Shown here: positions 1 to 38,873 of the stretch, in pieces | Position numbering within the stretch: position 1 is the stretch's first letter | Layout of the letters: every line of letters begins with the position of its first letter | From: a virus | Taxonomy: Duplodnaviria > Heunggongvirae > Uroviricota > Caudoviricetes | Virus record (IMG/VR): IMGVR_UViG_2734482567_000007 | DNA: 38,873 nt | Strand: one strand, 5' to 3' | The notes under the pieces: model-generated | Told to the model about the DNA's origin: nothing | Database searches by the model: none | Seen by the model: only the letters and a program-made list of their open reading frames with translations | Program-made: the position numbers and the translations under genes

Positions 1-83
1 TGATGGCAAAGTGTTCCTTACACAGGCGCAGCTGGCGATGCTGCTGGAAGGTATCGACTGGCGACATATAACCAGGTGAATCA

Positions 84-239
84 TTTGATACCGACAAGGG
101 GTTTAGTGAAAGGAGGTGAAATCACCTGTAAGATACTGAAATAAAACAGGTGATGGCTAGATGTGCGGATAAGGTCTATTTGATACCGATTGTGCAATAA
201 TTAGTCATTTATTATAAAATCGGCAACTCATTTGATACT
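84..239 (+). repeat. Left-end transposase-binding-type repeats (3 copies of TTTGATAC[C/T]G at 84-93, 179-188, 231-239)
   Basis: Three same-orientation copies in the ~230 bp outside the repressor gene; the same motif recurs at the other phage end; Mu-type ends carry multiple A-binding sites (established knowledge). Confidence 0.6.
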
Positions 240-298
240 GTGGTTTTAGTCTTTTAAGGCGTTCCAAACAATGCGAAATACTCGATATAGTGCAAAAT

Positions 299-1276: not shown

Positions 1277-3364
1277 ATGTTTGCTTCAGTTAAAGAACTG
1301 GTTGGATTACCGGGGATGCCGGGAACGGAGCAAGGCGTTCGCTATTCAATCAGGAAGTATGCAACCAGCGAAACCAGCAGACGCCGCAAGAAAGGCGCTA
1401 AAGGTTTTGAATACAGCATTGACTGTTTACCTGAAGTGACACAGCAGGCATTACGCGAACGTTATGCCCTGCAACTGATGACGCAAAAAGCCGATGAATC
1501 ACCGGCTCCGGTGGTGACAAAGGCCAGACGCTCGTCTGCCGTGGTTGATGCGGTGGAGGCATATCGCGGATCACCACAACTGATGGTCGAACGCCTCAAT
1601 GCCCTGACTGAAAACCAGCGCCAGGTGGCAGACGCACGCATTGCGATCGTCAGTGAGGTGCTGAAATTCACGCAACAACCCGGTTTCAGCTGCGCTAAAG
1701 CTATCCGGTTCCTCGTTAACAGCCTGGCACGATCACAACTGGACGAGCGCATTGTGGCAATGGTTGAGACGGCGAACGCCAAAAAGGGAAACAGCCGCGC
1801 GTTGAGTGAAATCACGCTGAAACGCTGGATTGCGGCCTTTAACAAGGCACAGAACGCCGCTGAACGCCTGCTTTTACTGGCACCGGGTAAACGCCAGGAA
1901 ATAAAAGCCGAAGATATTAACTGGCTGCCCGAATTTCTGGCGCAGTATCGCCAGTCAAACGGCCGACCAATGACCGAGGCTTACGAGGATTTTGTTGCTG
2001 AATGGCAGCACCGGCACGCTGATGAGCCTTATATGCTCGATATCATGCCCTCTTATGACACCATTCGCCGCGCAATGAAGAAACTGCCGGAAGTGGTGAA
2101 ACAAAAAGGCCGGGTAACTGGCAGTGAATACCGTCAGCTTGAGGGATTCACGCGCCGCGACTGGTCCAGAATGCCGGTGAATTATGTCTGGATTGGTGAC
2201 GGTCACGGCATGAAGCTGAAATGCGCGCACCCGGTTCACGGGCGGCCATTCGCACCGGAAGTGACCTTTGTTATCGACGGTGGCACGCGCTTTGTGGTGG
2301 GCTGGAGCCTTGACCTGGCTGAAAATGTTTTCGCCGTAGCCGGTGCCATACAGCACGGTATTCGCCATCATGGCAAACCGTTTCTGTATTACTCGGATAA
2401 TGGCTCCGGGGAAACCGCCGACGTCCTGGATAAGGAGATTGTGGGGATACTGCCACGACTGGGGATTAATCACCCGACAGGGATTGCCGGTAATCCGCAG
2501 GGACGGGGCATTATCGAACGGCTTAACCGCACATTACCGATGCGCATAGCCCGTAAATACCGCACCTATTTCGGGAAAGGAGCAGATCGCGAGACGTTAC
2601 GTAAAACCAACCGCGATTTACGCTCGGCATTCAGTGCCCTGCAACAGGGCAAACGGCTGAACGCCCGGCAGCAGTCAGCGATGCGTGATTTACCGTCCTG
2701 GTCTGAACTGATTGATGCCATTCGTGACGGTGTTGAGTGGTACAACAACCGGCCGCACGATGAATTACCCATGAAGCCGAACGGTAAACATTACAGCCCG
2801 GCGGAGTTCAGAAAAAAACGCCTGGCGGAAGAGGACACGGAAATTGAATGGCTGTCCGATGTTGAACTGCGGGATATGTTCCGGCCGATGGTGGAGCGCC
2901 CTGTAAGACGCTGTGAAATACGCTGGCTGAATAATATTTACTACGCGCCCGAGCTGCGTGACGAGCATGGCCGTAAGGTACTTATCAGCTATGACATTCA
3001 TGATGCCGAACGAATTACCGTGCGCCGCCCGGATGGCAGCGTGATTTGCGAGGCGGTATGGGACGGCAATAAACGCGAAGCCTTCCCTGTCAGCGCGGAA
3101 TACTACAAACAGCAGCAGCGCCTTAAAGGCATGCGTAAACGCGCAGAGGAAAAAATCCGTGATGCCGAGGATGAGGTTGTCAACGTGCTGGAGCACAAGC
3201 CGCAGGAGCCCTGGCTGGAAAACATATACCGCCCTGTGGGTAATACGGTGACCGTTCAGCAACCGGTCGCTGACGATGAACCTGATGAAGAATACGAGCG
3301 TAATTTCCAGCGGGGATTGCAACTGCTCGAAGCGAAATTAAAAGAAAGTGATCCGCTGGCCTGA
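1277..3364 (+). CDS. A: Mu-type DDE transposase (MuA homologue)
   Basis: 695 aa; position after ner; WIGDGHGMK and downstream acidic residues consistent with DDE core; size close to MuA. Confidence 0.85.
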   Translation: MFASVKELVGLPGMPGTEQGVRYSIRKYATSETSRRRKKGAKGFEYSIDCLPEVTQQALRERYALQLMTQKADESPAPVVTKARRSSAVVDAVEAYRGSPQLMVERLNALTENQRQVADARIAIVSEVLKFTQQPGFSCAKAIRFLVNSLARSQLDERIVAMVETANAKKGNSRALSEITLKRWIAAFNKAQNAAERLLLLAPGKRQEIKAEDINWLPEFLAQYRQSNGRPMTEAYEDFVAEWQHRHADEPYMLDIMPSYDTIRRAMKKLPEVVKQKGRVTGSEYRQLEGFTRRDWSRMPVNYVWIGDGHGMKLKCAHPVHGRPFAPEVTFVIDGGTRFVVGWSLDLAENVFAVAGAIQHGIRHHGKPFLYYSDNGSGETADVLDKEIVGILPRLGINHPTGIAGNPQGRGIIERLNRTLPMRIARKYRTYFGKGADRETLRKTNRDLRSAFSALQQGKRLNARQQSAMRDLPSWSELIDAIRDGVEWYNNRPHDELPMKPNGKHYSPAEFRKKRLAEEDTEIEWLSDVELRDMFRPMVERPVRRCEIRWLNNIYYAPELRDEHGRKVLISYDIHDAERITVRRPDGSVICEAVWDGNKREAFPVSAEYYKQQQRLKGMRKRAEEKIRDAEDEVVNVLEHKPQEPWLENIYRPVGNTVTVQQPVADDEPDEEYERNFQRGLQLLEAKLKESDPLA

Positions 3365-16207: not shown

Positions 16208-17522
16208 TTTAGGTTATGCCGCCACGCTTCCCTCAAAAGAGACGGTGGCATACTTCCGCGCCAAAGGGGCGCATATCAGCTGGAACTGGTTCGAAACAGA
16301 CGCGGATGTTCATGCCCGCTCATTCACGGCAGCAAAAACGGCACGGCTGGATGTGGTAACCACATTACAGGCCGAAGTGCAGCGGGCCATTGATGAGGGG
16401 ATTTCACAGAAAGAATTTATCCGCACACTGACGCCACGCCTGCAAAAGCTGGGATGGTGGGGAAAGCAGATTGTGGTGGACAGCGACGGTAACGCGGAAG
16501 AAGTGCAGCAGGGCAGTCCCCGTCGTCTGGCGCTGATTTACAACGTGAACACCCGTGTGGCTTACAATGCCGGGCGTTACACGCAGATGATGAACAACAC
16601 GGACACGCATCCGTTCTGGCAGTATGTGGCGGTCATGGACAGCCGTACCCGCCCGTCGCATTCCGCCCTTAACGGTCTGGTATTCCGCTATGACGATCCG
16701 TTCTGGAAAACACACTACCCGCCCAATGGCTGGAACTGCCGCTGCCGTGTGCGGCCATTGTCTCAGGCCCGTCTGGATGCAATGGGGTTATCCGTTTCAT
16801 CCGGTGAGGATCATCTCTCCACCCGCAATGTTGAGGCTGGCGTGGATAAACAGACCGGAGAAGTCAGAGAAATGCCGGTGACCACATATTCAGATGGCGC
16901 CAGAACCATGACACCGGATGTGGGCTGGTCATATAACCCCGGCTCGGCAGCGTTCGGCACAGACCAGGCGCTGATCCGCAAACTGATCGAGGTGAAAAGC
17001 CCGGCGTTACGGGAAATGGTGGTTCAGGAGATGAACAACAGCCCGGAGCGGCAGCTGGCGTTCCGCATCTGGGCAAAAAACATCATGCAGACCCGGCGAG
17101 GTGGTAACGATATCCGCACGCTGGGCTTTATGACTGAAAGCATTGCGCAGGCAGTGGAAAGCCGGACGGGAACGCCACCGGCCCGCCTGCTGGCGATGAG
17201 CGGTAAAAATGTGCTCCATGCGGACAGTGTGAAACATCAGAATGACGGCATCGCTCTGACGCCGGAGGACTTCGGGCGCTTACCGGCAATGCTGGCAAGG
17301 CCAAAAGCGGTACTGTGGGACAAACGGCACAACAATCTGATGTATATCGTGGAAAATCAGGATGGCAGTGTGCAGATTGCCGTTAATGCACCGTACAGTC
17401 TGAAACGTCAGCCCGACAAACTGGATGTGATTGTGAATGCTTACCGGGTTATCAATATGGATAAGCTGAAATCGGATATCCGGGGCGGAATGCTTGAGGT
17501 GCTGGAAGGACAAATTGATTAA
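16191..17522 (+). CDS. Head morphogenesis protein (Mu F-like)
   Basis: 443 aa; motif DSRTRPSHSALNGLVF...NGWNCRCRV typical of F-family minor head proteins. Confidence 0.75.
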   Translation: MAQGIDLGYAATLPSKETVAYFRAKGAHISWNWFETDADVHARSFTAAKTARLDVVTTLQAEVQRAIDEGISQKEFIRTLTPRLQKLGWWGKQIVVDSDGNAEEVQQGSPRRLALIYNVNTRVAYNAGRYTQMMNNTDTHPFWQYVAVMDSRTRPSHSALNGLVFRYDDPFWKTHYPPNGWNCRCRVRPLSQARLDAMGLSVSSGEDHLSTRNVEAGVDKQTGEVREMPVTTYSDGARTMTPDVGWSYNPGSAAFGTDQALIRKLIEVKSPALREMVVQEMNNSPERQLAFRIWAKNIMQTRRGGNDIRTLGFMTESIAQAVESRTGTPPARLLAMSGKNVLHADSVKHQNDGIALTPEDFGRLPAMLARPKAVLWDKRHNNLMYIVENQDGSVQIAVNAPYSLKRQPDKLDVIVNAYRVINMDKLKSDIRGGMLEVLEGQID

Positions 17523-17607
17523 CGGTCAGTGGCGGGGGTCGAACCCGCATACATGATCCACCCGGAGGCAGGCACCGACTTTACCAGTTAAGCGTACACT
17601 GACCGCC
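17523..17607 (-). other. Structured tRNA-like element (T-arm plus acceptor-like stem), not a canonical tRNA
   Basis: Minus strand shows GTCAGTG...CACTGAC 7-8 bp terminal helix enclosing GCGGG-TTCGACC-CCCGC T-arm-like hairpin; no acceptable anticodon arm found. Confidence 0.3.
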
Positions 17608-17643
17608 TGTTTATTTTATATTCATCCTTTATGCGGAGGCAAT

Positions 17644-18117
17644 ATGTCATCCATTGATGCAGCTGTCGTTGTTGACGTTACGCGTCTCCAGCGAGTGTTT
17701 GCCCGGCTTCAGTTTGTGGGCGGCGGAAAAGACCTGGCCCGCAGTGTGGCGGCGAGTCTTCTGTCATCGTCAGAAATGGCGTTTGAGCAGGAAAAAGAGC
17801 CGGATGGTGAACGCTGGCATGACTGGTCAGATCCTTACCGTGAGTGGCGTACCCGTAAGGGATACACGCCCGGCAAAATCCTGACGCTGAACGGCGATCT
17901 GGCCCGCCGCCTGACCACGGATTATGGCGATACCTGGGCGCTGATTGGATCAAATGAACCTTATGCAGCCATTCATCAGTGGGGTGGCCTGCCTGGTATG
18001 CCACCGGGACCGGCGGCCATTGGCGCACGTCCGTATATGGGCTTTGATCAGGTGGCAGAACAGGAGATCATGGACGAAATCAGAAAACGCTTTAAAAAGG
18101 CCACAGAAACGCCGTAA
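17644..18117 (+). CDS. Virion morphogenesis protein (Mu G-like)
   Basis: 157 aa; GGAGG RBS; position between F and I as in Mu. Confidence 0.6.
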   Translation: MSSIDAAVVVDVTRLQRVFARLQFVGGGKDLARSVAASLLSSSEMAFEQEKEPDGERWHDWSDPYREWRTRKGYTPGKILTLNGDLARRLTTDYGDTWALIGSNEPYAAIHQWGGLPGMPPGPAAIGARPYMGFDQVAEQEIMDEIRKRFKKATETP

Positions 18118-31157: not shown

Positions 31158-31708
31158 CCCTGACCCCGCATCAGCGCGCCCTGTTGCAGTTACTGCCTGA
31201 CGGGCTGGCATGGGACAAGCGTCCGTCATCCGTACTGGCATCATTATGTCTGGGCCTCAGTCATTCGACAGCGCGTGTATCCTGGACGGGTAAACAGCTG
31301 CTTGCCGAGCGTTTCCCTGACACGTCGCGCCTGCTGCTGGAAGACTGGGAGCGTTATCTCGGGCTTCCCGAGTGTGATATGGCCGGAGCCACCCTCACGG
31401 AGCGACAGCGTTATGCCGGAAATAAATACCGGATGAAGCCCTCGCTGAACCGTGAATTTTATATCCGGTTTGCGGCGGAGTTTGGTTATCAGATTGACAT
31501 TCAGCCCTCACCGGATTCGCAGTGGGTCAGTATTGTCACGATTAACAGTGAAACCGGCTACCGGAATATGAATGTGCTGGATGATATTCTCACGCCGCTG
31601 CGTATTTATGAAGGCGGTGCGCTGGAATGTATTCTGAACCGTTATAAGCCTGCATGGCAGACGTTTATTTACGTTTATGCAAACAGCCATGAAGAGGAGA
31701 CTATTTAA
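31148..31708 (+). CDS. Baseplate/tail-fibre-adaptor protein (Mu gp48-like)
   Basis: 186 aa; immediately upstream of fibre gene. Confidence 0.55.
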   Translation: MAVTLTPHQRALLQLLPDGLAWDKRPSSVLASLCLGLSHSTARVSWTGKQLLAERFPDTSRLLLEDWERYLGLPECDMAGATLTERQRYAGNKYRMKPSLNREFYIRFAAEFGYQIDIQPSPDSQWVSIVTINSETGYRNMNVLDDILTPLRIYEGGALECILNRYKPAWQTFIYVYANSHEEETI

Positions 31709-32153
31709 TGTTTCATGTTGATAATAATTCCGGCGTGGCGAATATGCCTGCGCTGGCACCGGCGCAGAGTAATACCACCACCTGGTTTACCGAAGGTGAC
31801 GGACAAAAAGGTATCAGCTGGATTGGTCAGGACTGGCTGAATATTCTCCAGGCCGAACTGCTGAATATTCTGGCTGAAGCCAGTATTCAGCCGGATAAGG
31901 CGCAGTTAAACCAGCTTACGCTGTCCATTAAAGCCATTATCGCTGCGAATGCCTTTTCCCGGAAAAATAACCTGAAAGAAATTGCTGATGCCGGTGCGGA
32001 GGCCCAGCGTCTGGCCCGTGGTTATCTTGGTCTGGGGACGCTTGCCACAAAAAACAGTCTTGGTCCCGCTGACGTTAATGCCCTGGCGAAGGATCAGAAT
32101 CTCGCCGACCTGGAGAATAAGGGAACCGCCCGTAATAATCTGGATGTTTACAG
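31708..32153 (+). CDS. Tail-fibre protein, N-terminal constant part (3' truncated by N gap)
   Basis: ORF runs into the N run; N-terminus typical of Mu/P2-type fibre anchor region. Confidence 0.65.
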
Positions 32154-32403
32154 NNNNNNNNNNNNNNNNNNNNNNNNNNNNNNNNNNNNNNNNNNNNNNN
32201 NNNNNNNNNNNNNNNNNNNNNNNNNNNNNNNNNNNNNNNNNNNNNNNNNNNNNNNNNNNNNNNNNNNNNNNNNNNNNNNNNNNNNNNNNNNNNNNNNNNN
32301 NNNNNNNNNNNNNNNNNNNNNNNNNNNNNNNNNNNNNNNNNNNNNNNNNNNNNNNNNNNNNNNNNNNNNNNNNNNNNNNNNNNNNNNNNNNNNNNNNNNN
32401 NNN
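32154..32403. other. Assembly gap (250 N)
   Basis: Uninterrupted run of N. Confidence 0.99.
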
Positions 32404-32427
32404 GGCTGTCTATAGCGCGGCGATTTT

Positions 32428-32493
32428 TTTGATACCGATTTGCATTTCATTTGATACCGCTGAAAAACGCCGATACGCAACTTATTTGATACT
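32428..32493 (+). repeat. Right-end transposase-binding-type repeats (TTTGATACCG at 32428-32437 and 32450-32459, TTTGATACT at 32485-32493)
   Basis: Same motif as at left end, immediately downstream of mom stop on the minus strand and abutting the N gap. Confidence 0.6.
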
Positions 32494-32538
32494 AAATCGG
32501 CGCTTTTCTTTTGAGTTTTAGAATGAGTTTTTAAGCGT

Positions 32539-33276
32539 TCATTCACTCTCTTTCAAACCAGTTTTAACTGTTTGTGGTTTTGGGTAAGGCTGGACTTTGA
32601 ATAGCTTTGTGTTAAGGCGTTTTCTGGCTCTCTTGTCCAGAAACCGGATGTAACGAAACTGACGGAATTTATGAACACTGGCTCTGTCGATATTAGCCCG
32701 CAGATGTTCACCTCGCTGTCCTCCTCGTTTGATTGCATTCTTGCAAATCTCGTGATACCACTCGCCATCAAGTTCATAGAATGTTGTTTCATGACTGCCT
32801 ACATAATCAAAATTGCTTGCCTGGTACACGACACCAAGACAGCCACAACGCTCATCTGCAAACGACTGAACCCACTGCACCTGCGGATAAAGTTGTCTGA
32901 TTAGTTTGAGCGCGTAACTGATTGCCCTTGATTCGGAGTTTCTCGGCATACAGTCATGCAGCCATAACCGGTTAAGCTCCATATATTCGCGGTTCTGCGT
33001 GCCAGTTACGACGCGTGCACCATTGTTTGGATTAAGGGCATAACCCCATTGCATTACGCCAACCAGCTCCCGTTCTGAAAATATGCCCAGATGAAGGTAG
33101 GAATTATTTACGAAACGATGGCTGTAATGTTTATTGACGACGACCAGCCGGGCCAGCCAGCAACTTATTGTCTCAACCCGTAACTCACGGGAGCCATAAC
33201 CGACGATATTGTCGTTATAGTGAATAAGTTCAGGCGTGCTGATGATACGGGATGTAACTTGCTTTCTGTTCCCCAC
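32539..33276 (-). CDS. mom: Mom-like DNA modification protein; start inferred as GTG at 33276 inside 3' end of com
   Basis: Last gene before the phage end, immediately downstream of and overlapping a Com-like zinc-finger gene; mom frame has no ATG near com stop; GTG at 33276 preceded by AAGGA (9-nt spacing). Confidence 0.55.
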
Positions 33277-33430
33277 GACAGGATTTCCTTGTGTATGTGG
33301 GGTGCTCTGTGGCGCTCTGAGATGTGATTTGATTGAGGGTTTTACAGCGCGGACATTTAACTTCCAGATAACTGAAGCTGGCTCGTGCCAGTAGCTTGTT
33401 ACAATGTCGGCACCGTATGTTTCGATACAT
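33230..33430 (-). CDS. com: Com-like zinc-finger translational activator of mom
   Basis: 66 aa from ATG 33430 (GGAGG upstream); CRHCNKLL...CPRCK zinc-finger resembling Mu Com; overlaps mom start. Confidence 0.7.
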
Positions 33431-33570
33431 GGCCGCATAACCTCCTGCTTTGTTGTTGATATCTTTATCACTCAATCGATCGACAAAAACGATCGATTTG
33501 ATTTATTTAATTGATACAACAAATAACACGAAATGTCATTAGCGAAAATTTATGAGTTTGATCACTAATT
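33431..33570 (-). promoter_or_regulatory. com-mom upstream regulatory region with clustered GATC sites
   Basis: GATC at 33478-33481 and 33491-33494, each within a CGATCG palindrome, and a third at 33560-33563, in an AT-rich region upstream of com. Confidence 0.45.
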
Positions 33571-33686
33571 TTAAACGGTGCTGTAACGCATAAGTGCTGA
33601 ATGATTGTACATTTGAATACCGCAAAGCAAACAAATCAACTAATTTATAGAAGTCAATTGGTTAATTGCCAGCGTAAGAGGCTGCT

Positions 33687-33980
33687 ATGGACAATCATGT
33701 AACGACGAGAAATCGAAAAATGATTGAAAATGCGGAAATCTATAATGATTATTTTTCCGATTATTCAGATGCCTGCAAATACAGTTCGAGTGCGGGAGAG
33801 TTCATATGCTTCAACTTTTTTATTAAATCTTATGTTTTTCCTCCACAGCAAGAAGATGGAGGTGTGCCACCTCCTGAAATCACTTTGCACCGTATAGCCT
33901 CCGTCTCAATGATGGAGCAACAGGCTAATGAGCTGTATAGCATTCTGGGAACGATTCTACAAAAGCGTGAATCGGACTAA
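33687..33980 (+). CDS. Hypothetical AT-rich protein, divergent from com-mom
   Basis: 97 aa; RBS TAAGAGG 5 nt before ATG; markedly AT-rich relative to phage core. Confidence 0.45.
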   Translation: MDNHVTTRNRKMIENAEIYNDYFSDYSDACKYSSSAGEFICFNFFIKSYVFPPQQEDGGVPPPEITLHRIASVSMMEQQANELYSILGTILQKRESD

Positions 33981-34062
33981 TGATACCGGTTCATTTGCCT
34001 GCCCGGATGGGGAAGCAGGATTGACTGCTCCATAAGCAGCTATATTTCTGAATACGAAATAC

Positions 34063-34142
34063 TATCCAGCGATTACATATGGCTGGATAGCGGCAAAGAT
34101 GTTTTCATTAGTGTCAAACCGGCAGAGGACACCACCGGTTTG
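34063..34142. other. Two palindromic elements between convergent genes (TATCCAGC/GCTGGATA and CAAACCGG/CCGGTTTG)
   Basis: Perfect 8-bp inverted repeats at 34063-34089 and 34115-34142; the second ends 5 bp before the stop of the 84-aa gene. Confidence 0.35.
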
Positions 34143-34147
34143 TATTG

Positions 34148-34402
34148 TTACATCATGGTACTGTCAGTTCCGGGCTGAGCCGGGTCTGGTTGCTCTGGCT
34201 GCGCGTCGGTTTTCGGCTCATTATCAGCATCACTGGCCGCAACTGCTGGCCCAATAAGTTTTGCCAGCACTTCATCAACGTAAGTGTCGATTTGTGCCTC
34301 AAAATCCTTGCGGACCTGCGCTTTCAGCAACTTATTTACTTCACCGGAATACAGTGCCTGTTTTACCAGGTCTTCAGTGACGGTGCCTTTAATTTCTGGC
34401 AT
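34148..34402 (-). CDS. Hypothetical acidic protein
   Basis: 84 aa; strong RBS AGGAGG 6 nt before ATG; Asp/Glu/Pro-rich C-terminus. Confidence 0.5.
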   Translation of the reverse strand: MPEIKGTVTEDLVKQALYSGEVNKLLKAQVRKDFEAQIDTYVDEVLAKLIGPAVAASDADNEPKTDAQPEQPDPAQPGTDSTMM

Positions 34403-34437
34403 GTATATCCTCCTTATGCGGGAATAAAGCCCTGCAA

Positions 34438-34620
34438 TCAGGGCTGGGTCGGGTCTTTTGGGAGCGGAGTTACCTGCGCTGTTTTACTGAGTTTTTCAGC
34501 TGCTGCGTCCTCAATTTTGCGGCGAACATAATTTCTGATGGCCTTATAACCACCACTCACCAGATATAACGCACATACTGCCGTGCAGAAATACAATAAA
34601 ATAAGCTGTAAAAATGTCAT
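34438..34620 (-). CDS. 60-aa single-transmembrane peptide (candidate small membrane toxin or lysis/exclusion peptide)
   Basis: ATG at 34620 preceded by GGGAGGG; N-terminal hydrophobic helix MTFLQLILLYFCTAVCALYLVSGGY followed by basic/charged tail. Confidence 0.45.
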   Translation of the reverse strand: MTFLQLILLYFCTAVCALYLVSGGYKAIRNYVRRKIEDAAAEKLSKTAQVTPLPKDPTQP

Positions 34621-34635
34621 TATCCCTCCCAATTA

Positions 34636-34758
34636 TTGACATGGTGTTGACACCGGTAATATCTGTTAGGTAAAAAGGTGCACTGCATTTTTTGCTTTGG
34701 ATATAACGATCTTTTTGCCGCCGGTTTCTTGTTTTCCCTTACCGGCGGCATTTTTTTA
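34636..34758 (+). ncRNA. Candidate small RNA transcription unit antisense to the leader of the 60-aa peptide gene
   Basis: TTGACA (34636-34641), 15-bp spacer, TAATAT (34657-34662), then intrinsic terminator GCCGCCGGT...ACCGGCGGC + TTTTTTT (34717-34757); no plus-strand protein gene to serve. Confidence 0.35.
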
Positions 34759-34764
34759 TCCTGC

Positions 34765-36819
34765 TTACGCGTTATTCACTTCCACCACGATACTGTCAAT
34801 CAGTACCGGGTAAGTCGCATTTTTAGTGATATCGGTCACGCGCAACTTGTCTGCCGTAAACGTGCCGACCGGAGACTGCGACAGCATGAATGGTGTCCCG
34901 TCCTTACCATCAATGACCGGCGTCACCTCAATACTGTTGTTACCGGCAAAACGGAAGCCCAGCGTATGCCATTCGTTATTAAATGCGCCGAATGACCCCA
35001 GCTTCGTGTTCTGCGCCGTGTTTCCTTTGTGATACATCACGTTAAGGTCTGTGGCATCGCTCTGTACGTAGAACGATGCCAGCAGGTTATGACCGGCATT
35101 TCCTTCCAGAGTAACCCCTTGCGGCAGGGCAGAAACCGGCCAGTACAGCGCCAGTGCGTACTGATTAGCCGTAAGCGCGCCATCGAGTTTAAAACGACAA
35201 CTGACAAGACCACCTTTACCCAGCAGGTCCGCACCATTACCAGCATCATGCTCAAGGTACCAGGGGGCTCTTCCTGTTTCCTTGGTCAGTTTCATTGCCT
35301 TACCCCCGCTGGCTCCGGCATCATCCACGATTTGAGCCTTGCCACCTCCGGCAGCCCAACCCTGTGGTGTCAACCGTCCTTCAGACTCAGATGCCCGGTA
35401 AGCAAATAGCGTACTCATCGTCGTGGTGTCTGCGGGTGGCGTGGACGGTTTTGATGGTGTATCAGGTGACGGCTTCTCATCCGGTGGTGTCACGGTCTGC
35501 CCACGCATCAGTTCAGCCGTGCGCCCTGCATGGAGCATAATAGCTGAGGCCAGACGGTCTGAAATGACGCCCCTGCGTGCCCATGAGCTGAAATGGCTGT
35601 CACGCTGTGTCGAAACAAAACTGCCCTGGGTTCGGGATGCTGCACCGTAATACCCGACAGCCACAATATCCGGGTCTTCCGCCGGAGCATTCGTTGGCGT
35701 GCTCTGTCCATTCTCATCCGTCAGGAACGGTACAAAGAAAATTTTCTGTGCTTCCTTGCCTTTGTAGCCACCGTATACTGCCTCATATTTATCGGTGCCA
35801 GCGTTTTTCCAGTAATACGTGGTATCACCGCAAATCCACGGCACCGTGGTGGCATTTCCACTCACGCACTGCGCAGCAAGCGGAGCCAGGTCAGTTCTGA
35901 ACTGCTGAACCATGGCCGTGAATAAACTATTATGCTGCTGGCTTCCTGAGGCAAGGTCTGCCTCTCCCTGCATCCAGACCACAGCCAGAAGTTTGTTTTT
36001 CGGGTTTTTCGCCAGCGCGACTTTGGTGCGGCTTACCAGGTCCTGATACAGAGGTTTACCGGCCCCCCAGCGTGAAGAATCAGCGGAAGCACCGCTGGCC
36101 TCACTGAATGAGCCGTCGGCTCCAGTGGTGAATGCTGACCCGCCACGACAACAGGGCACCAGAAGTATCCCGGCATTCTGTGGGATATAGGGAAGCAGTT
36201 TTTTGGCAATATGCAACCCCTGACCGACAGTCCCGTACTGGCCTTTTGCCAGATCAGCTTTCGGGTGGTTTATCCCGCTCATATCCTGAACATCATGCAG
36301 GCAGTGGTCTGCCGGAATGATGTCGTTGTATGTACACGACGTACCGTTGGGCGTTACCGTACTGCGGCGTGCCAGTTGCTTAATGCGTGGGTCCGGGCGG
36401 TCAAACGAATCCGGTAACGGCAGCCCCTCGCCGTAGGCCATGCCATTTGACTGACCCGCGAGAATGACAACAAAGTAATATTCCGGCTCTGAACTGCTGC
36501 CATTCGTGCTACCGGAAGGCCCGGCGTTATCCGGTGCATTCCAGTCGGAGGGCGTGAGCGTTCCGGCCACGTCAGATGTGATTGGAATGATGCCAGTCAC
36601 GCCTGAACTGGTGATTTCTGCACTGGGATTACCGGATACCGGCATTACCCATAATGGCTCTTTCGTGCTGAAGCGGATCACGCAGTCTGCGAAGGTGATC
36701 CCCCCTTTATTACCCGAAGGGCGGAAAGGGCTTTCAATAAATGCCACCGTGCCACCGGCAACCTTGACTGAAAACTCTCCGGGCATGGCGGAGAGCATTT
36801 TCCACTTGGAGTCTGACAT
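34765..36819 (-). CDS. SGNH/sialate-O-acetylesterase-like carbohydrate esterase with C-terminal lectin-like domain (NanS-p-like)
   Basis: 684 aa; YYFVVILAGQSNGMAYGEG esterase motif; Pro/Ser/Thr-rich linker; C-terminal beta-rich domain; inserted between gin and com. Confidence 0.5.
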   Translation of the reverse strand: MSDSKWKMLSAMPGEFSVKVAGGTVAFIESPFRPSGNKGGITFADCVIRFSTKEPLWVMPVSGNPSAEITSSGVTGIIPITSDVAGTLTPSDWNAPDNAGPSGSTNGSSSEPEYYFVVILAGQSNGMAYGEGLPLPDSFDRPDPRIKQLARRSTVTPNGTSCTYNDIIPADHCLHDVQDMSGINHPKADLAKGQYGTVGQGLHIAKKLLPYIPQNAGILLVPCCRGGSAFTTGADGSFSEASGASADSSRWGAGKPLYQDLVSRTKVALAKNPKNKLLAVVWMQGEADLASGSQQHNSLFTAMVQQFRTDLAPLAAQCVSGNATTVPWICGDTTYYWKNAGTDKYEAVYGGYKGKEAQKIFFVPFLTDENGQSTPTNAPAEDPDIVAVGYYGAASRTQGSFVSTQRDSHFSSWARRGVISDRLASAIMLHAGRTAELMRGQTVTPPDEKPSPDTPSKPSTPPADTTTMSTLFAYRASESEGRLTPQGWAAGGGKAQIVDDAGASGGKAMKLTKETGRAPWYLEHDAGNGADLLGKGGLVSCRFKLDGALTANQYALALYWPVSALPQGVTLEGNAGHNLLASFYVQSDATDLNVMYHKGNTAQNTKLGSFGAFNNEWHTLGFRFAGNNSIEVTPVIDGKDGTPFMLSQSPVGTFTADKLRVTDITKNATYPVLIDSIVVEVNNA

Positions 36820-36904
36820 CGTCTTTTCTGCCTGTTTCTGAATTAAACAGAGTCAGAATAGCGACCGCTGAAAAATATGTGTTTTGCGGAAATTCAAAAA
36901 AGCG

Positions 36905-37477
36905 TCACGGTACTTTTGGTGACGGAGCTGGTGAGGCAGGAAAATAACGATAAAGGGTGGAAAGGCCAATATCAAATATCAGTGCGATTTGTTTACGGGA
37001 CTCGCCATTAGCCAGCAAACGGGCGATTTGCTCCCGCTCTTTCTCTGTCAGTTTCTGAGGTCTGCCGCCATGACGCCCCTGAGCACGGGCAGCAGCAAGA
37101 CCCGCGCGTGTACGTTCAATAATGAGTTCCCGCTCCATTTCCGCCAGCGCGCCCATTATATGGAAAAAGAAACGTCCCATGGGAGTGGATGTATCAATAT
37201 TGTCCGTAATGCTGCGGAAGTTAACGCCGCGTTGCCGGAGTTCTTCTGTTAAAAGGACAAGGTGCTGCATACTGCGTCCAAGGCGATCCAGTTTCCAGAC
37301 CAGCAGGGTATCCCCTGGCCGGAGTCGCTTTAATGCGCGTTTAAGTCCGGGACGCTCCCTTGTCTTACCGCTTATTCTGTCTTCGAAAAACAGCTCACAT
37401 CCTGCACATTCCAGCGCATTTCTTTGTAGCGCCGTATTCTGGTCATTTGTTGACACCCTGATATACCCAATCAGCAT
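36905..37477 (-). CDS. gin: Gin/Hin/Pin/Cin-family serine DNA invertase
   Basis: 190 aa; near-identical N-terminus to Mu Gin (MLIGYIRVSTNDQNT...GDTLLVWKLDRLGRSM...GRFFFHIMGALAEMERELIIERT); adjacent to gix site. Confidence 0.9.
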   Translation of the reverse strand: MLIGYIRVSTNDQNTALQRNALECAGCELFFEDRISGKTRERPGLKRALKRLRPGDTLLVWKLDRLGRSMQHLVLLTEELRQRGVNFRSITDNIDTSTPMGRFFFHIMGALAEMERELIIERTRAGLAAARAQGRHGGRPQKLTEKEREQIARLLANGESRKQIALIFDIGLSTLYRYFPASPAPSPKVP

Positions 37478-37523
37478 ACGATTTCCTTATTATAAAAAGC
37501 CGGAATTGTCGCATGAGGAATAA

Positions 37524-37907
37524 AACAGAGTTAATCCTGGCTTTCCTGAAAACCTCGGTTTACGGGAAACGGTAAACAGGGCGGCGAATGCCCTGCCATC
37601 GGACGGCACCGCCGTTGCCGCGAACAGGCTGGCAAATGCCCACACAATTAATGGTGTTCCCTTTGACGGGACGCAGGATATCACTATCTCATCAGGAACA
37701 GTAACCGCCATAAGACTGGGGTCGGTGACCGCACATATGCCCGGAACATGGGAAAGCTGGGATCTGAATCTGGGGGGCGGCAATGTTCTTACCGGAATTA
37801 AAGTACAGGATGTCGGTAAGAATACGGCAGATAACGTCGGCGGCGTGTATTACCGGCCGTTGCAGTATCTGTTAAATGGAGCATGGGTGACGGCTGCAAG
37901 TATATAA
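37524..37907 (+). CDS. Alternative tail-fibre C-terminal cassette (no start codon; expressed only after inversion)
   Basis: Open frame from IR into variable region ending at 37907; shares ...NGVPFDGTQDI with the minus-strand cassette and then diverges. Confidence 0.55.
   Translation, partial: NRVNPGFPENLGLRETVNRAANALPSDGTAVAANRLANAHTINGVPFDGTQDITISSGTVTAIRLGSVTAHMPGTWESWDLNLGGGNVLTGIKVQDVGKNTADNVGGVYYRPLQYLLNGAWVTAASI
37543..37568. other. gix-type inversion crossover site (left)
   Basis: TTCCTGAAAACCTCGGTTTACGGGAA, matching the Mu gix/hix core AAAACCTCGGTTTAC with imperfect dyad symmetry; 65 bp from gin start. Confidence 0.7.
37555..37624 (+). repeat. Left inverted repeat of invertible segment
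   Basis: 70 bp with one mismatch to the reverse complement of 38804-38873; encodes the shared fibre segment ...RAANALPSDGTAVAAN... Confidence 0.8.
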
Positions 37908-37938
37908 TGATATTCAGAAGGCCTTCCGGCCTTCTTTA

Positions 37939-38460
37939 TTACTGTGGCTGCTCAGGCCATTTAATGGCGTTAAATTCAGCTTCTGTTTTAATGGCGGGTA
38001 GTTCCATTTTCTTCACCTGACTGATGTATGCCATCCATTGGGTAAGTGCTGCTCTGTCTTCATCGCTGATGGTGCCCAGTTGTAGCTCCGTTCTCCAGTC
38101 ATTAATTTTTTCATATGCCTGATTAAGATATGACTGGCGCATTGCTTCCAGTTTTCTTGCGTAGTTAACCGGAATACGGGAGATTATGCCATTATCAAAC
38201 TTCCAGTTTCCTGAAATATCCGTGCCTTCAGGGAGTTCATCGACCTCAACCACAGAAAACCCCGCAGGATACAGCGCCGAGGCGTCCTGTGATATTGAGC
38301 AGATAACGCCGCTGTCAGGTGTTATGCAAAGTTTATATTTTTTGGTGAATAATGGCAGGGATTCGTAGAAATCCTTACCATCTTCACTCTGGAAATACTG
38401 AACATTATTACCATATGGCATATTTTCAGGATAATAACGGGTTATATTTTTTAGTTCCAT
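37939..38460 (-). CDS. Tail-fibre assembly (chaperone) protein, U/Tfa family
   Basis: 173 aa; GGAGG RBS; immediately downstream of minus-strand fibre cassette; typical Tfa C-terminal region. Confidence 0.75.
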   Translation of the reverse strand: MELKNITRYYPENMPYGNNVQYFQSEDGKDFYESLPLFTKKYKLCITPDSGVICSISQDASALYPAGFSVVEVDELPEGTDISGNWKFDNGIISRIPVNYARKLEAMRQSYLNQAYEKINDWRTELQLGTISDEDRAALTQWMAYISQVKKMELPAIKTEAEFNAIKWPEQPQ

Positions 38461-38511
38461 AAAATCCTCCTGGAAATAAATCTGTTTTAAAATATATTAT
38501 TTACTGACTAT

Positions 38512-38873
38512 TTATAACTGAGATACCGTAATCCATGTACCTCCGACTAATTTTTGCAGGGGTCTGAATGCTATAAAATCGTTTGAAGCATCAACTTTAC
38601 TGTCAATCTGCAGGCCTGCCATAACATTACCGTACGCAGAGTAATATGCCCCACCGTACATTACCTGCCTGTTCTCTGCTCCCAGCCTGATATCCTGGAT
38701 ATATCGGGAATCCGCATCCTGCTGTGTTATACCAGAAGTGATGTTTATGTCCTGCGTCCCGTCAAAGGGAACCCCATTAATATTTCTTGGGGTGGCGAGT
38801 CTATTCGCGGCAACGGCGGTGCCGTCCGATGGCAGAGCATTCGCCGCCCTGTTTACCGTTTCCCGTAAACCGA
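38512..38873 (-). CDS. Tail-fibre variable C-terminal cassette (5' truncated at window edge / gix site)
   Basis: Open frame from window end to TAA at 38512-38514; begins with IR-encoded ...NRAANALPSDGTAVAAN then variable region; followed by assembly gene. Confidence 0.6.
   Translation of the reverse strand, partial: GLRETVNRAANALPSDGTAVAANRLATPRNINGVPFDGTQDINITSGITQQDADSRYIQDIRLGAENRQVMYGGAYYSAYGNVMAGLQIDSKVDASNDFIAFRPLQKLVGGTWITVSQL
38804..38873 (-). repeat. Right inverted repeat of invertible segment, ending in right gix half-site (38860-38873)
   Basis: Reverse complement matches 37555-37624; TTCCCGTAAACC + GA at the very end of the window is the right half and centre of a gix site. Confidence 0.8.

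Follow-up and report, generated by a model that had tools for sequence, protein, structure and literature searches.

A back-to-front second contig in the scaffold of a single Sp18-type Mu-like prophage of Escherichia coli

The Sp18-like Mu-like phages of STEC are the closest known group to the element analyzed here, and Sp18 itself is reported to possess an invertible host-specificity region with genes unlike those of Mu (PMC2669165, PMC10132054). In the native order of Sp18, fibre gene, invertible segment, invertase, ECs_4993, com, mom and the phage right end follow one another, all on one strand. The window, by which we mean the whole stretch of 38,873 nucleotides that was analyzed (virus record IMGVR_UViG_2734482567_000007), had been noted for a right arm that appears reverse-complemented behind a run of Ns. 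The original prediction saw in this an assembly break at the invertible segment with the second contig scaffolded in reverse, and named a genuine rearrangement or a second, oppositely oriented Mu-like copy as alternatives. The element is a member of the known Sp18 group (O157 Sakai) with a Mu-like Gin/gix switch. The "flipped" right arm is very probably a scaffolding artefact, i.e. one ordinary Sp18-type prophage of E. coli whose second contig was joined back to front.

Order and orientation of the two contigs

The following features bear on the arrangement of the window:

32154..32403, no strand: scaffold gap, 250 N, no real sequence there; the true gap is 83 bp, between 32153 and 38873
67..260, +: left end of the phage, TATAACCAGG..., with three repeats that resemble transposase sites (84-93, 179-188, 231-240); independent insertions match from 67
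32411..32500, -: phage right end, reverse-complemented as shown (TATAGCGCGG...), three adjacent repeats at 32428, 32450 and 32485; other genomes match from 32411
32539..33276, -: mom (Pfam Mom, E 7.8e-78; Mom family in the DLI.5a annotation)
33230..33430, -: com, overlapping the mom start (Pfam Zn_ribbon_Com, E 1.3e-12; the DLI.5a annotation agrees)
34765..36819, -: cargo gene of 684 aa between gin and com (Pfam SASA carbohydrate esterase and DUF6645; the Sp18 counterpart in position is ECs_4993)
36905..37477, -: gin-type serine DNA invertase, intact, 190 aa (Pfam Resolvase and HTH_7, E 1.6e-51)

The run of Ns comprises exactly 250 bases at 32154-32403, as had been claimed. A motif scan for TTTGATACYR found seven copies in the window versus 0.21 expected, among them those at 84, 179 and 231 and at 32428, 32450 and 32485, all on the plus strand. 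The latter three are the Mu-type end repeats predicted directly after the gap and, because an end with the same repeat polarity as the left end must be written in reverse, they mark this end as reverse-complemented. The minus-strand location of mom, com and gin was likewise confirmed, each gene by its Pfam match.

The complete E. coli genomes DLI.5a and HH35 carry prophages 99.4-100% identical to that of the window, and in both of them 83 bp separate base 32153 from base 38873, the two being on the same strand. Position 38873 is hence the true neighbour of 32153, which establishes that contig 2 was scaffolded in reverse with the break at the invertible segment, just as had been proposed. In DLI.5a, one strand carries both the final 60 bases of the window and, at the 83-bp spacing, the 200 bases that end contig 1, the latter as their reverse complement. 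When the window was compared by blastn with the complete HH35 prophage, positions 58-32153 aligned forward with 99.4% identity and positions 32404-37681 reversed with 99.7% identity, and the 83-bp hole recurred. The two contigs share neither an overlap nor a duplicated gene. Joining contig 1 and the reverse complement of contig 2 through the missing 83-bp piece, CAAAAGCGAAGGTGATAACCGTTACCTGCGCAGGGAGCAGAACGGCGCAGACATTCCGGATAAAGGGGCTTTTATCGATAACG, reconstructs a prophage of 38,633 bp.

The window is accordingly best read as a two-contig scaffold of one Sp18-type Mu-like prophage residing within tnpB of an IS66-family element, in which contig 1 (1-32153) runs from the left end to the constant part of the tail-fibre gene and contig 2 (32404-38873) holds the remaining phage, written reverse-complemented. 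Owing to this reversal, the gix crossover, which is the true inner end of contig 2, comes to lie at the window edge and the phage right end against the Ns. What is really missing is not 250 bp but an 83-bp piece of the fibre gene that contains the outer half-site of gix. A break at gix itself was only partly borne out: contig 2, and with it the window, ends there, but contig 1 stops 83 bp upstream, within the constant part of the fibre gene.

For the record annotation this means that 32404-38873 should be flipped, the gap shrunk to 83 bp and the whole treated as one intact 38.6-kb prophage. If left uncorrected, the fibre gene is truncated and the gene order false, such that the importance lies mainly in data quality. 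The case illustrates that invertible segments can cause contig breaks and wrong scaffold orientation; the artefact itself adds nothing new to phage biology, since the Gin/gix switch and the Sp18 group have already been described.

The invertible fibre segment and the cause of the break

The components of the switch are distributed over both contigs as follows:

31708..32153, +: Sc, constant N-terminal tail-fibre part, 148 codons, cut by the gap (ORF list)
37543..37568, no strand: gin-proximal gix, TTCCTGAAAACC TC GGTTTACGGGAA, a complete site; the Mu equivalent differs at 3/26 positions
37557..37907, +: S'v, alternative fibre C-terminus, 116 codons, with a bidirectional hairpin (37904-37939) behind it
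37939..38460, -: tail-fibre assembly gene (U-like), the sole one in the segment (Pfam Caudo_TAP, E 4.8e-19)
38512..38871, -: Sv, fibre C-terminus joined to Sc in the state of contig 2 (reconstructed ORF)
38860..38873, +: Sc-side gix, core and inner half-site (TTCCCGTAAACC GA); the window lacks the outer half-site CGTTATCGATAA

The final 14 bases of the window (38860-38873, +) are TTCCCGTAAACCGA, the predicted gix half-site plus central GA, of which there is one exact inverted copy at 37555-37568. Once the Sc-side site is completed with 12 bases from DLI.5a, there are two inverted 26-bp gix sites with a shared TC/GA core like that of Mu. Whichever variable part follows, the frame of Sc continues into it across the missing 83 bp, and the open reading frame is intact in both states: Sc plus Sv yields a 296-aa tail-fibre protein identical to DLI.5a WP_032189690, and Sc plus the 83 bp plus S'v gives a 293-aa product identical to HH35 WP_000469166. 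This arrangement is that of a Gin/gix switch, in which the serine invertase flips the ~1.3-kb segment and either Sv or S'v thereby becomes the in-frame continuation of the constant fibre N-terminus. Both states occur in natural genomes. The segment orientation of the window is also present in H8-H10, and the opposite one was found in HH35, 600029 and JE86-ST05, each of which was checked; the opposite orientation is also probable for seven further records, which match in the same way, in two pieces and with 83% coverage.

The gin product matches the Mu Gin structures PDB 4M6F and 3UJ3 with an E value of 2.5e-88. Among relatives, the gene is frameshifted in DLI.5a and absent in S1-CAM-01-A. In Mu, a Fis-dependent cis enhancer of inversion lies within the 5' portion of gin. 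Over its first 240 nt, gin of the window is 71% identical to that of Mu, with one shared match to the Fis consensus at position 71 of both genes; a search with one simple consensus gave no second Fis site. At the place of the HH35 'tRNA-OTHER' annotation, ARAGORN finds no tRNA in the window.

Draft genomes are known to break or to be mis-joined during assembly where they contain invertible segments or inverted repeats. The break may have arisen from an inverted repeat or from mixed orientations of the G segment: the exact inverted repeat of 37 nt beginning at the crossover fits, and so do reads of mixed orientation. As displayed, S'v shares the strand of Sc, a placement to which the scaffolder could have been steered by read pairs stemming from the other G state. 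With confidence only a little above even, we favour the view that break and flip directly reflect active switching in the population, with both G states abundant in the culture and Sc|S'v read pairs setting the displayed orientation. If true, this would offer a workable example of a Gin switch that is live in an Sp18-type phage, with a second fibre variant without its own assembly chaperone. As in known draft-assembly breaks at invertible segments, the end of contig 2 is the first base at which the orientation states diverge; unlike in those cases, the other break is 83 bp off the site and the gin-side junction was assembled through. Both of these points count against the proposed explanation; a simple mixture of orientations does not predict that contig 1 ends 83 bp short of gix. 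No prophages other than Mu-like ones contain a match to the 83-bp piece, and the median is one place per genome; a dispersed repeat shared with other prophage types is therefore not supported as the reason for the stop at 32153.

Instead of mixed G orientations, the exact 37-nt inverted repeat alone could have been the cause, being unthreadable for a short-k assembler, with the flip arbitrary or reference-guided. The gix arms are indeed identical for 37 nt from the TC core, mismatching first at positions 38 and 71, and because the outer neighbours of the arms differ immediately, a break at the repeat boundary falls on the same base as a break at the crossover. We regard this explanation as possible but rather unlikely: reads longer than 37 nt normally resolve such a repeat, gin is intact here and both states occur naturally, and it leaves unexplained why S'v and Sc share a strand in the display, an outcome that read pairs of the other G state would give.

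Phage ends and insertion site

The outer limits of the prophage and its transposition functions are defined by:

1..66, +: host left flank, 3' part of an IS66-family tnpB; GACA at 63-66 is one copy of the target duplication
1277..3364, +: MuA-family transposase (Pfam Mu-transpos_C, E 2.1e-17; HTH_Tnp_Mu_1, E 1.3e-8)
32404..32410, -: host right flank GGCTGTC (reverse complement of GACAGCC), exact continuation of the tnpB target; second GACA copy at 32407-32410

According to the HH35 annotation, the B-type neighbour of the transposase is an adjacent AAA ATPase. After re-orienting contig 2, the putative transposase-site repeats are inverted between the two ends, as in Sp18. Mu-like 5'-TG...CA-3' termini are absent, the ends being TATA...TATA in the present phage (TGTA...TATA in Sp18). 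This sets it apart from Mu proper and is no argument against membership in the Sp18 group.

In thousands of E. coli records, tnpB of IS66-family elements matches the left flank at 100%. The intact target reads ...GACTGGCGACAGCCTAAG. The left ...GGCGACA and the right GACAGCC fit the intact IS66 tnpB target GGCGACAGCC. The right flank is only 7 bases long, and its 7/7 match has a chance probability of ~6e-5. The flanks are so short because the outer ends sit in a multicopy insertion sequence. Among the complete E. coli genomes of the collection, none has the phage inserted in IS66 tnpB, and the exact junction between IS66 and phage gave no hits in IMG/VR or in the species-representative genomes of GTDB. 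The target duplication expected at both ends is indeed present (GACA, in IS66 tnpB), but it measures 4 bp and not the anticipated 5 bp. Six independent insertion sites of this phage group each show a 4-bp duplication, with the empty site verified for two of them; a 5-bp duplication was rejected as no choice of phage boundary yields 5 bp at any of the six sites. In the Sp18-type group, target duplications are thus 4 bp (5 bp in Mu) and the ends are 3'-TA. Our literature search found nothing relevant on 4-bp duplications in transposable phages or in Sp18.

Since both outer ends lie in a single IS66-family tnpB target with the GACA duplication, the prophage represents one insertion, which rules out a second copy as well as a real inversion. 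That contig 2 stems from a second, oppositely oriented Mu-like copy elsewhere, the contigs being partial views of different elements, might be considered because some E. coli genomes hold several Sp18-like copies, in up to 8 places per genome, and because the best left-end and right-end matches lie far apart in TOE17 and AST46. However, the contigs complement each other exactly, without overlap or a gene present twice and lacking no more than 83 bp, and GGCTGTC continues the IS66 tnpB target of the left flank at the same position with the group's 4-bp duplication, so that we consider such an origin very unlikely. Mu-type replicative transposition can invert DNA; still, a right arm truly inverted in the genome by gix recombination or intramolecular transposition, with the right end abutting the fibre gene, is scarcely credible, as all that speaks for it is the displayed scaffold order, whereas the right end joins GACAGCC of the IS66 target and not fibre-gene sequence, the far edge of the window runs into the fibre gene in every complete relative, and the arrangement occurs in none of the complete genomes examined, including 15 whose match covers 80% or more of contig 2. 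We thus regard it as essentially excluded that the right arm underwent a real structural rearrangement.

Comparison with Sp18 and Mu

Sp18 of E. coli O157:H7 Sakai has the same order of repressor, ner, A, B ... fibre, invertible segment, invertase, ECs_4993-type 680-aa gene, com and mom, the same end repeats and the same 4-bp duplication, and its fibre region is ~91.5% identical to that of the window at the DNA level. It differs in its left terminus (TGTAACC versus TATAACC here) and in its site of insertion, which is sorM in Sakai and IS66 tnpB here. Relatives closer than Sp18 are HH35, DLI.5a and TOE17, with 99.4-100% identity.

The phage shares several features with Mu. Mu Gin matches the window's invertase across residues 1-184 (E 2.5e-88), and the gix sites of Mu are likewise 26 bp in length with the same TC/GA core, the inner half-site differing at 1/12 positions. 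In Mu, too, a constant fibre N-terminus is fused in frame to alternative C-termini, gin adjoins the segment, and com and mom are located at the right end. In contrast, the G segment of Mu comprises ~3 kb versus ~1.3 kb here, where the segment has a single tail-fibre assembly gene and lacks U'. The phage in the window furthermore carries ~3.4 kb of extra genes between gin and com, and its 4-bp duplication and 3'-TA termini set it apart from Mu with 5 bp and 3'-CA.

Arrangement of the contigs around the gap

The window contains a single run of Ns, exactly 250 bases long (32154-32403), which separates contig 1 (1-32153) from contig 2 (32404-38873). The original prediction placed Mu-type end repeats directly beyond this gap, followed by mom, com and gin on the minus strand, and a gix half-site (the Gin crossover site) plus the central GA at the very end of the window. 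All of these were recovered at the positions it gave. In a motif scan, TTTGATACYR matched seven times in the window against 0.21 matches expected by chance. Three matches lie on the plus strand directly past the N run (32428, 32450, 32485) and three, likewise on the plus strand, near the window start (84, 179, 231). Their spacing, one apart from two on the left and three adjacent at the other end, resembles the layout of the L1/L2-L3 and R1-R3 sites of Mu. The two ends of a transposable phage are expected in inverted orientation to each other and the equal polarity of the repeats therefore already shows that the second piece is reverse-complemented.

Features of contig 2
32539-33276, minus: mom (Pfam Mom, E 7.8e-78)
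33230-33430, minus: com (Zn_ribbon_Com, E 1.3e-12)
after com and before the 684-aa gene, minus: three small ORFs
34765-36819, minus: 684-aa gene with SASA esterase and DUF6645 domains
36905-37477, minus: intact serine invertase, 190 aa (Resolvase and HTH_7)
37557-37907, plus: S'v, alternative fibre C-terminus, without its own assembly gene, running directly into a bidirectional hairpin (37904-37939)
37939-38460, minus: tail-fibre assembly gene, after Sv
38871 to 38512, minus: Sv, the other fibre C-terminus, followed by the assembly gene

The invertase matched Mu Gin (PDB 4M6F, 3UJ3) at E 2.5e-88. The final 14 bases of the window are TTCCCGTAAACCGA, and their single exact inverted copy (37555-37568) is part of a complete 26-bp site, TTCCTGAAAACC TC GGTTTACGGGAA, at 37543-37568.

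Contig 2 was 99.4-100% identical to complete E. coli chromosomes. In DLI.5a, a genome with a near-identical prophage, the sequence runs on past window base 38873 into the tail-fibre gene, on the same strand, and the reverse complement of contig 1's terminal 200 bases is reached exactly 83 bp beyond the window's final base. When the whole window was compared by blastn with the complete 38.6-kb prophage of strain HH35, window 58-32153 aligned forward (99.4% identity) and 32404-37681 reversed (99.7%). HH35 carries the invertible segment in the opposite orientation, and the same 83 bp are missing from the window. A phage of 38,633 bp resulted when the 83 bp were placed between contig 1 and the reverse-complemented contig 2; its fibre ORF encodes 296 aa, identical to WP_032189690 of DLI.5a. 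In the other state, the constant fibre part Sc, the 83 bp and S'v encode 293 aa identical to WP_000469166 of HH35. Collinearity and reconstruction thus establish that the contigs adjoin via their ends at 32153 and 38873, bearing out the proposal that the second contig was scaffolded in reverse. We conclude that the 250 Ns are misplaced and larger than the real gap, and that the apparent flip of the right arm arose in the scaffolding of a prophage of known type and does not reflect biology.

The flanks bear on the two alternatives. The first 66 bases of the window derive from the 3' part of a tnpB gene of the IS66 family, found with 100% identity in thousands of records, and matches to independent insertions of the phage elsewhere start at 67 (left) and 32411 (right). 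The left flank ends in ...GGCGACA, the right flank in phage orientation starts with GACAGCC, and together they restore the intact IS66 tnpB target (...GACTGGCGACAGCCTAAG) with a GACA duplication. As both flanks rebuild one target, a second, oppositely oriented Mu-like copy is very unlikely; a genuine inversion of the arm is excluded because the right end borders IS66 sequence instead of the fibre gene. The prophage lies inside tnpB of a multicopy repeat (flanks 1-66 and 32404-32410), which accounts for the contigs reaching only 66 and 7 bases beyond the phage ends. None of the complete genomes of the collection carried the same IS66 tnpB insertion.

The 684-aa protein carries its sialate-O-acetylesterase-type SASA domain at residues 117-312 and DUF6645 C-terminally. 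Its gene sits between gin and com, with small DUF1378 and DUF826 genes alongside, and could be a surface-glycan-modifying cargo gene. Mu lacks this block, whereas Sp18, the Mu-like prophage of O157:H7 Sakai, keeps it as ECs_4993. A 97-aa ORF without Pfam match (33687-33980, plus) lies between com and DUF826 on the strand opposite to all its right-arm neighbours; relatives are annotated with an 86-aa hypothetical protein. HH35 RefSeq lists a 'tRNA-OTHER' between the virion morphogenesis and minor head genes (L007 21326-21405; window about 17522-17644), and ARAGORN found no tRNA in the whole window.

The Gin/gix switch and the cause of the break

The invertase gene adjoins a segment of about 1.3 kb that has a gix site at either end, the two being inverted relative to each other.

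Gix sites in phage orientation
Sc side: here TTATCGATAACG TC GGTTTACGGGAA; Mu TTATCCAAAACC TC GGTTTACAGGAA
gin side: here TTCCCGTAAACC GA GGTTTTCAGGAA; Mu TTCCTGTAAACC GA GGTTTTGGATAA

Complete genomes with near-identical prophages contain the segment in either orientation: that of the window in H8-H10, the opposite one in HH35, 600029 and JE86-ST05, which were checked, and probably also in seven more records with the same two-piece match pattern at 83% coverage. The fibre genes are intact in both states. By analogy with Gin/Hin biochemistry, the core would be cut with a two-base stagger and subunit rotation would invert the segment, thereby exchanging the fibre C-terminus and, as a result, the host range. 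For the putative Fis enhancer, only one Fis-consensus match is common to this gin and Mu gin. The segment (37557-38871) is asymmetric, as in Sp18, with a single assembly gene against the pair U and U' of Mu. The switch has been lost in several close relatives: DLI.5a has a frameshift in gin and S1-CAM-01-A no gin at all (L001 9496-10067; L010 4612-4917), so that their fibre state is frozen. The DLI.5a prophage also has a large internal deletion, with head and tail genes gone.

The two segment arms are identical over 37 nt from the TC core, with first mismatches at positions 38 and 71, and their outer neighbours differ immediately. Consequently, the first base outward at which the orientations G(+) and G(-) diverge is the base after GA, where the window ends. 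We mildly favour a mixed G population as the cause of break and flip: the displayed orientation places S'v on the Sc strand, an erroneous placement of just the kind that read pairs from the other state would support. A short-k assembler could also break at an exact inverted repeat, even in a clonal culture, and the outer edge of the repeat coincides with the base of divergence. Neither cause accounts for two details: contig 1 ends 83 bp short of gix, and assembly passed through the gin-side junction unbroken. The 83-bp piece is not a dispersed repeat, matching only Mu-like prophages at a median of one place per genome.

Target duplication, termini and relation to Sp18 and Mu

A target-site duplication had been anticipated at the phage ends; GACA is indeed present at both, with 4 bp instead of the predicted 5. 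Sp18-type Mu-like prophages showed 4-bp duplications at six independent insertions (GACA, TACG, AACA, CGTG, GACG, TAAA; window 63-70 and 32407-32414; comparison loci L003 1560-1569, L002/L004, L005/L006, L008/L009, L010/L011, and L012 2972 and 41730), whereas Mu duplicates 5 bp. Empty sites were verified for two of the six, IS66 tnpB and sorM; O157 strains without Sp18 matched the sorM site at 136/136 positions. Mu ends in CA and the Sp18 type in 3'-TA; the left end reads TATAACC here and TGTAACC in Sp18. We found no description of 4-bp duplications or 3'-TA termini for this MuA-family group in the searchable literature, and their consistency might merit separate attention.

The element belongs to the Sp18 group, sharing with Sp18 itself its order of genes, its end repeats and, at about 91.5% DNA identity, its fibre region. 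An invertible host-specificity region with genes unlike those of Mu has been reported for Sp18 (PMC2669165), and Sp18-like phages are reported to occupy variable loci, often within mobile elements (PMC10132054). Mu proper differs in its longer segment, in having more than the single assembly gene, in lacking the additional genes between gin and com, and in its terminal bases and duplication length.
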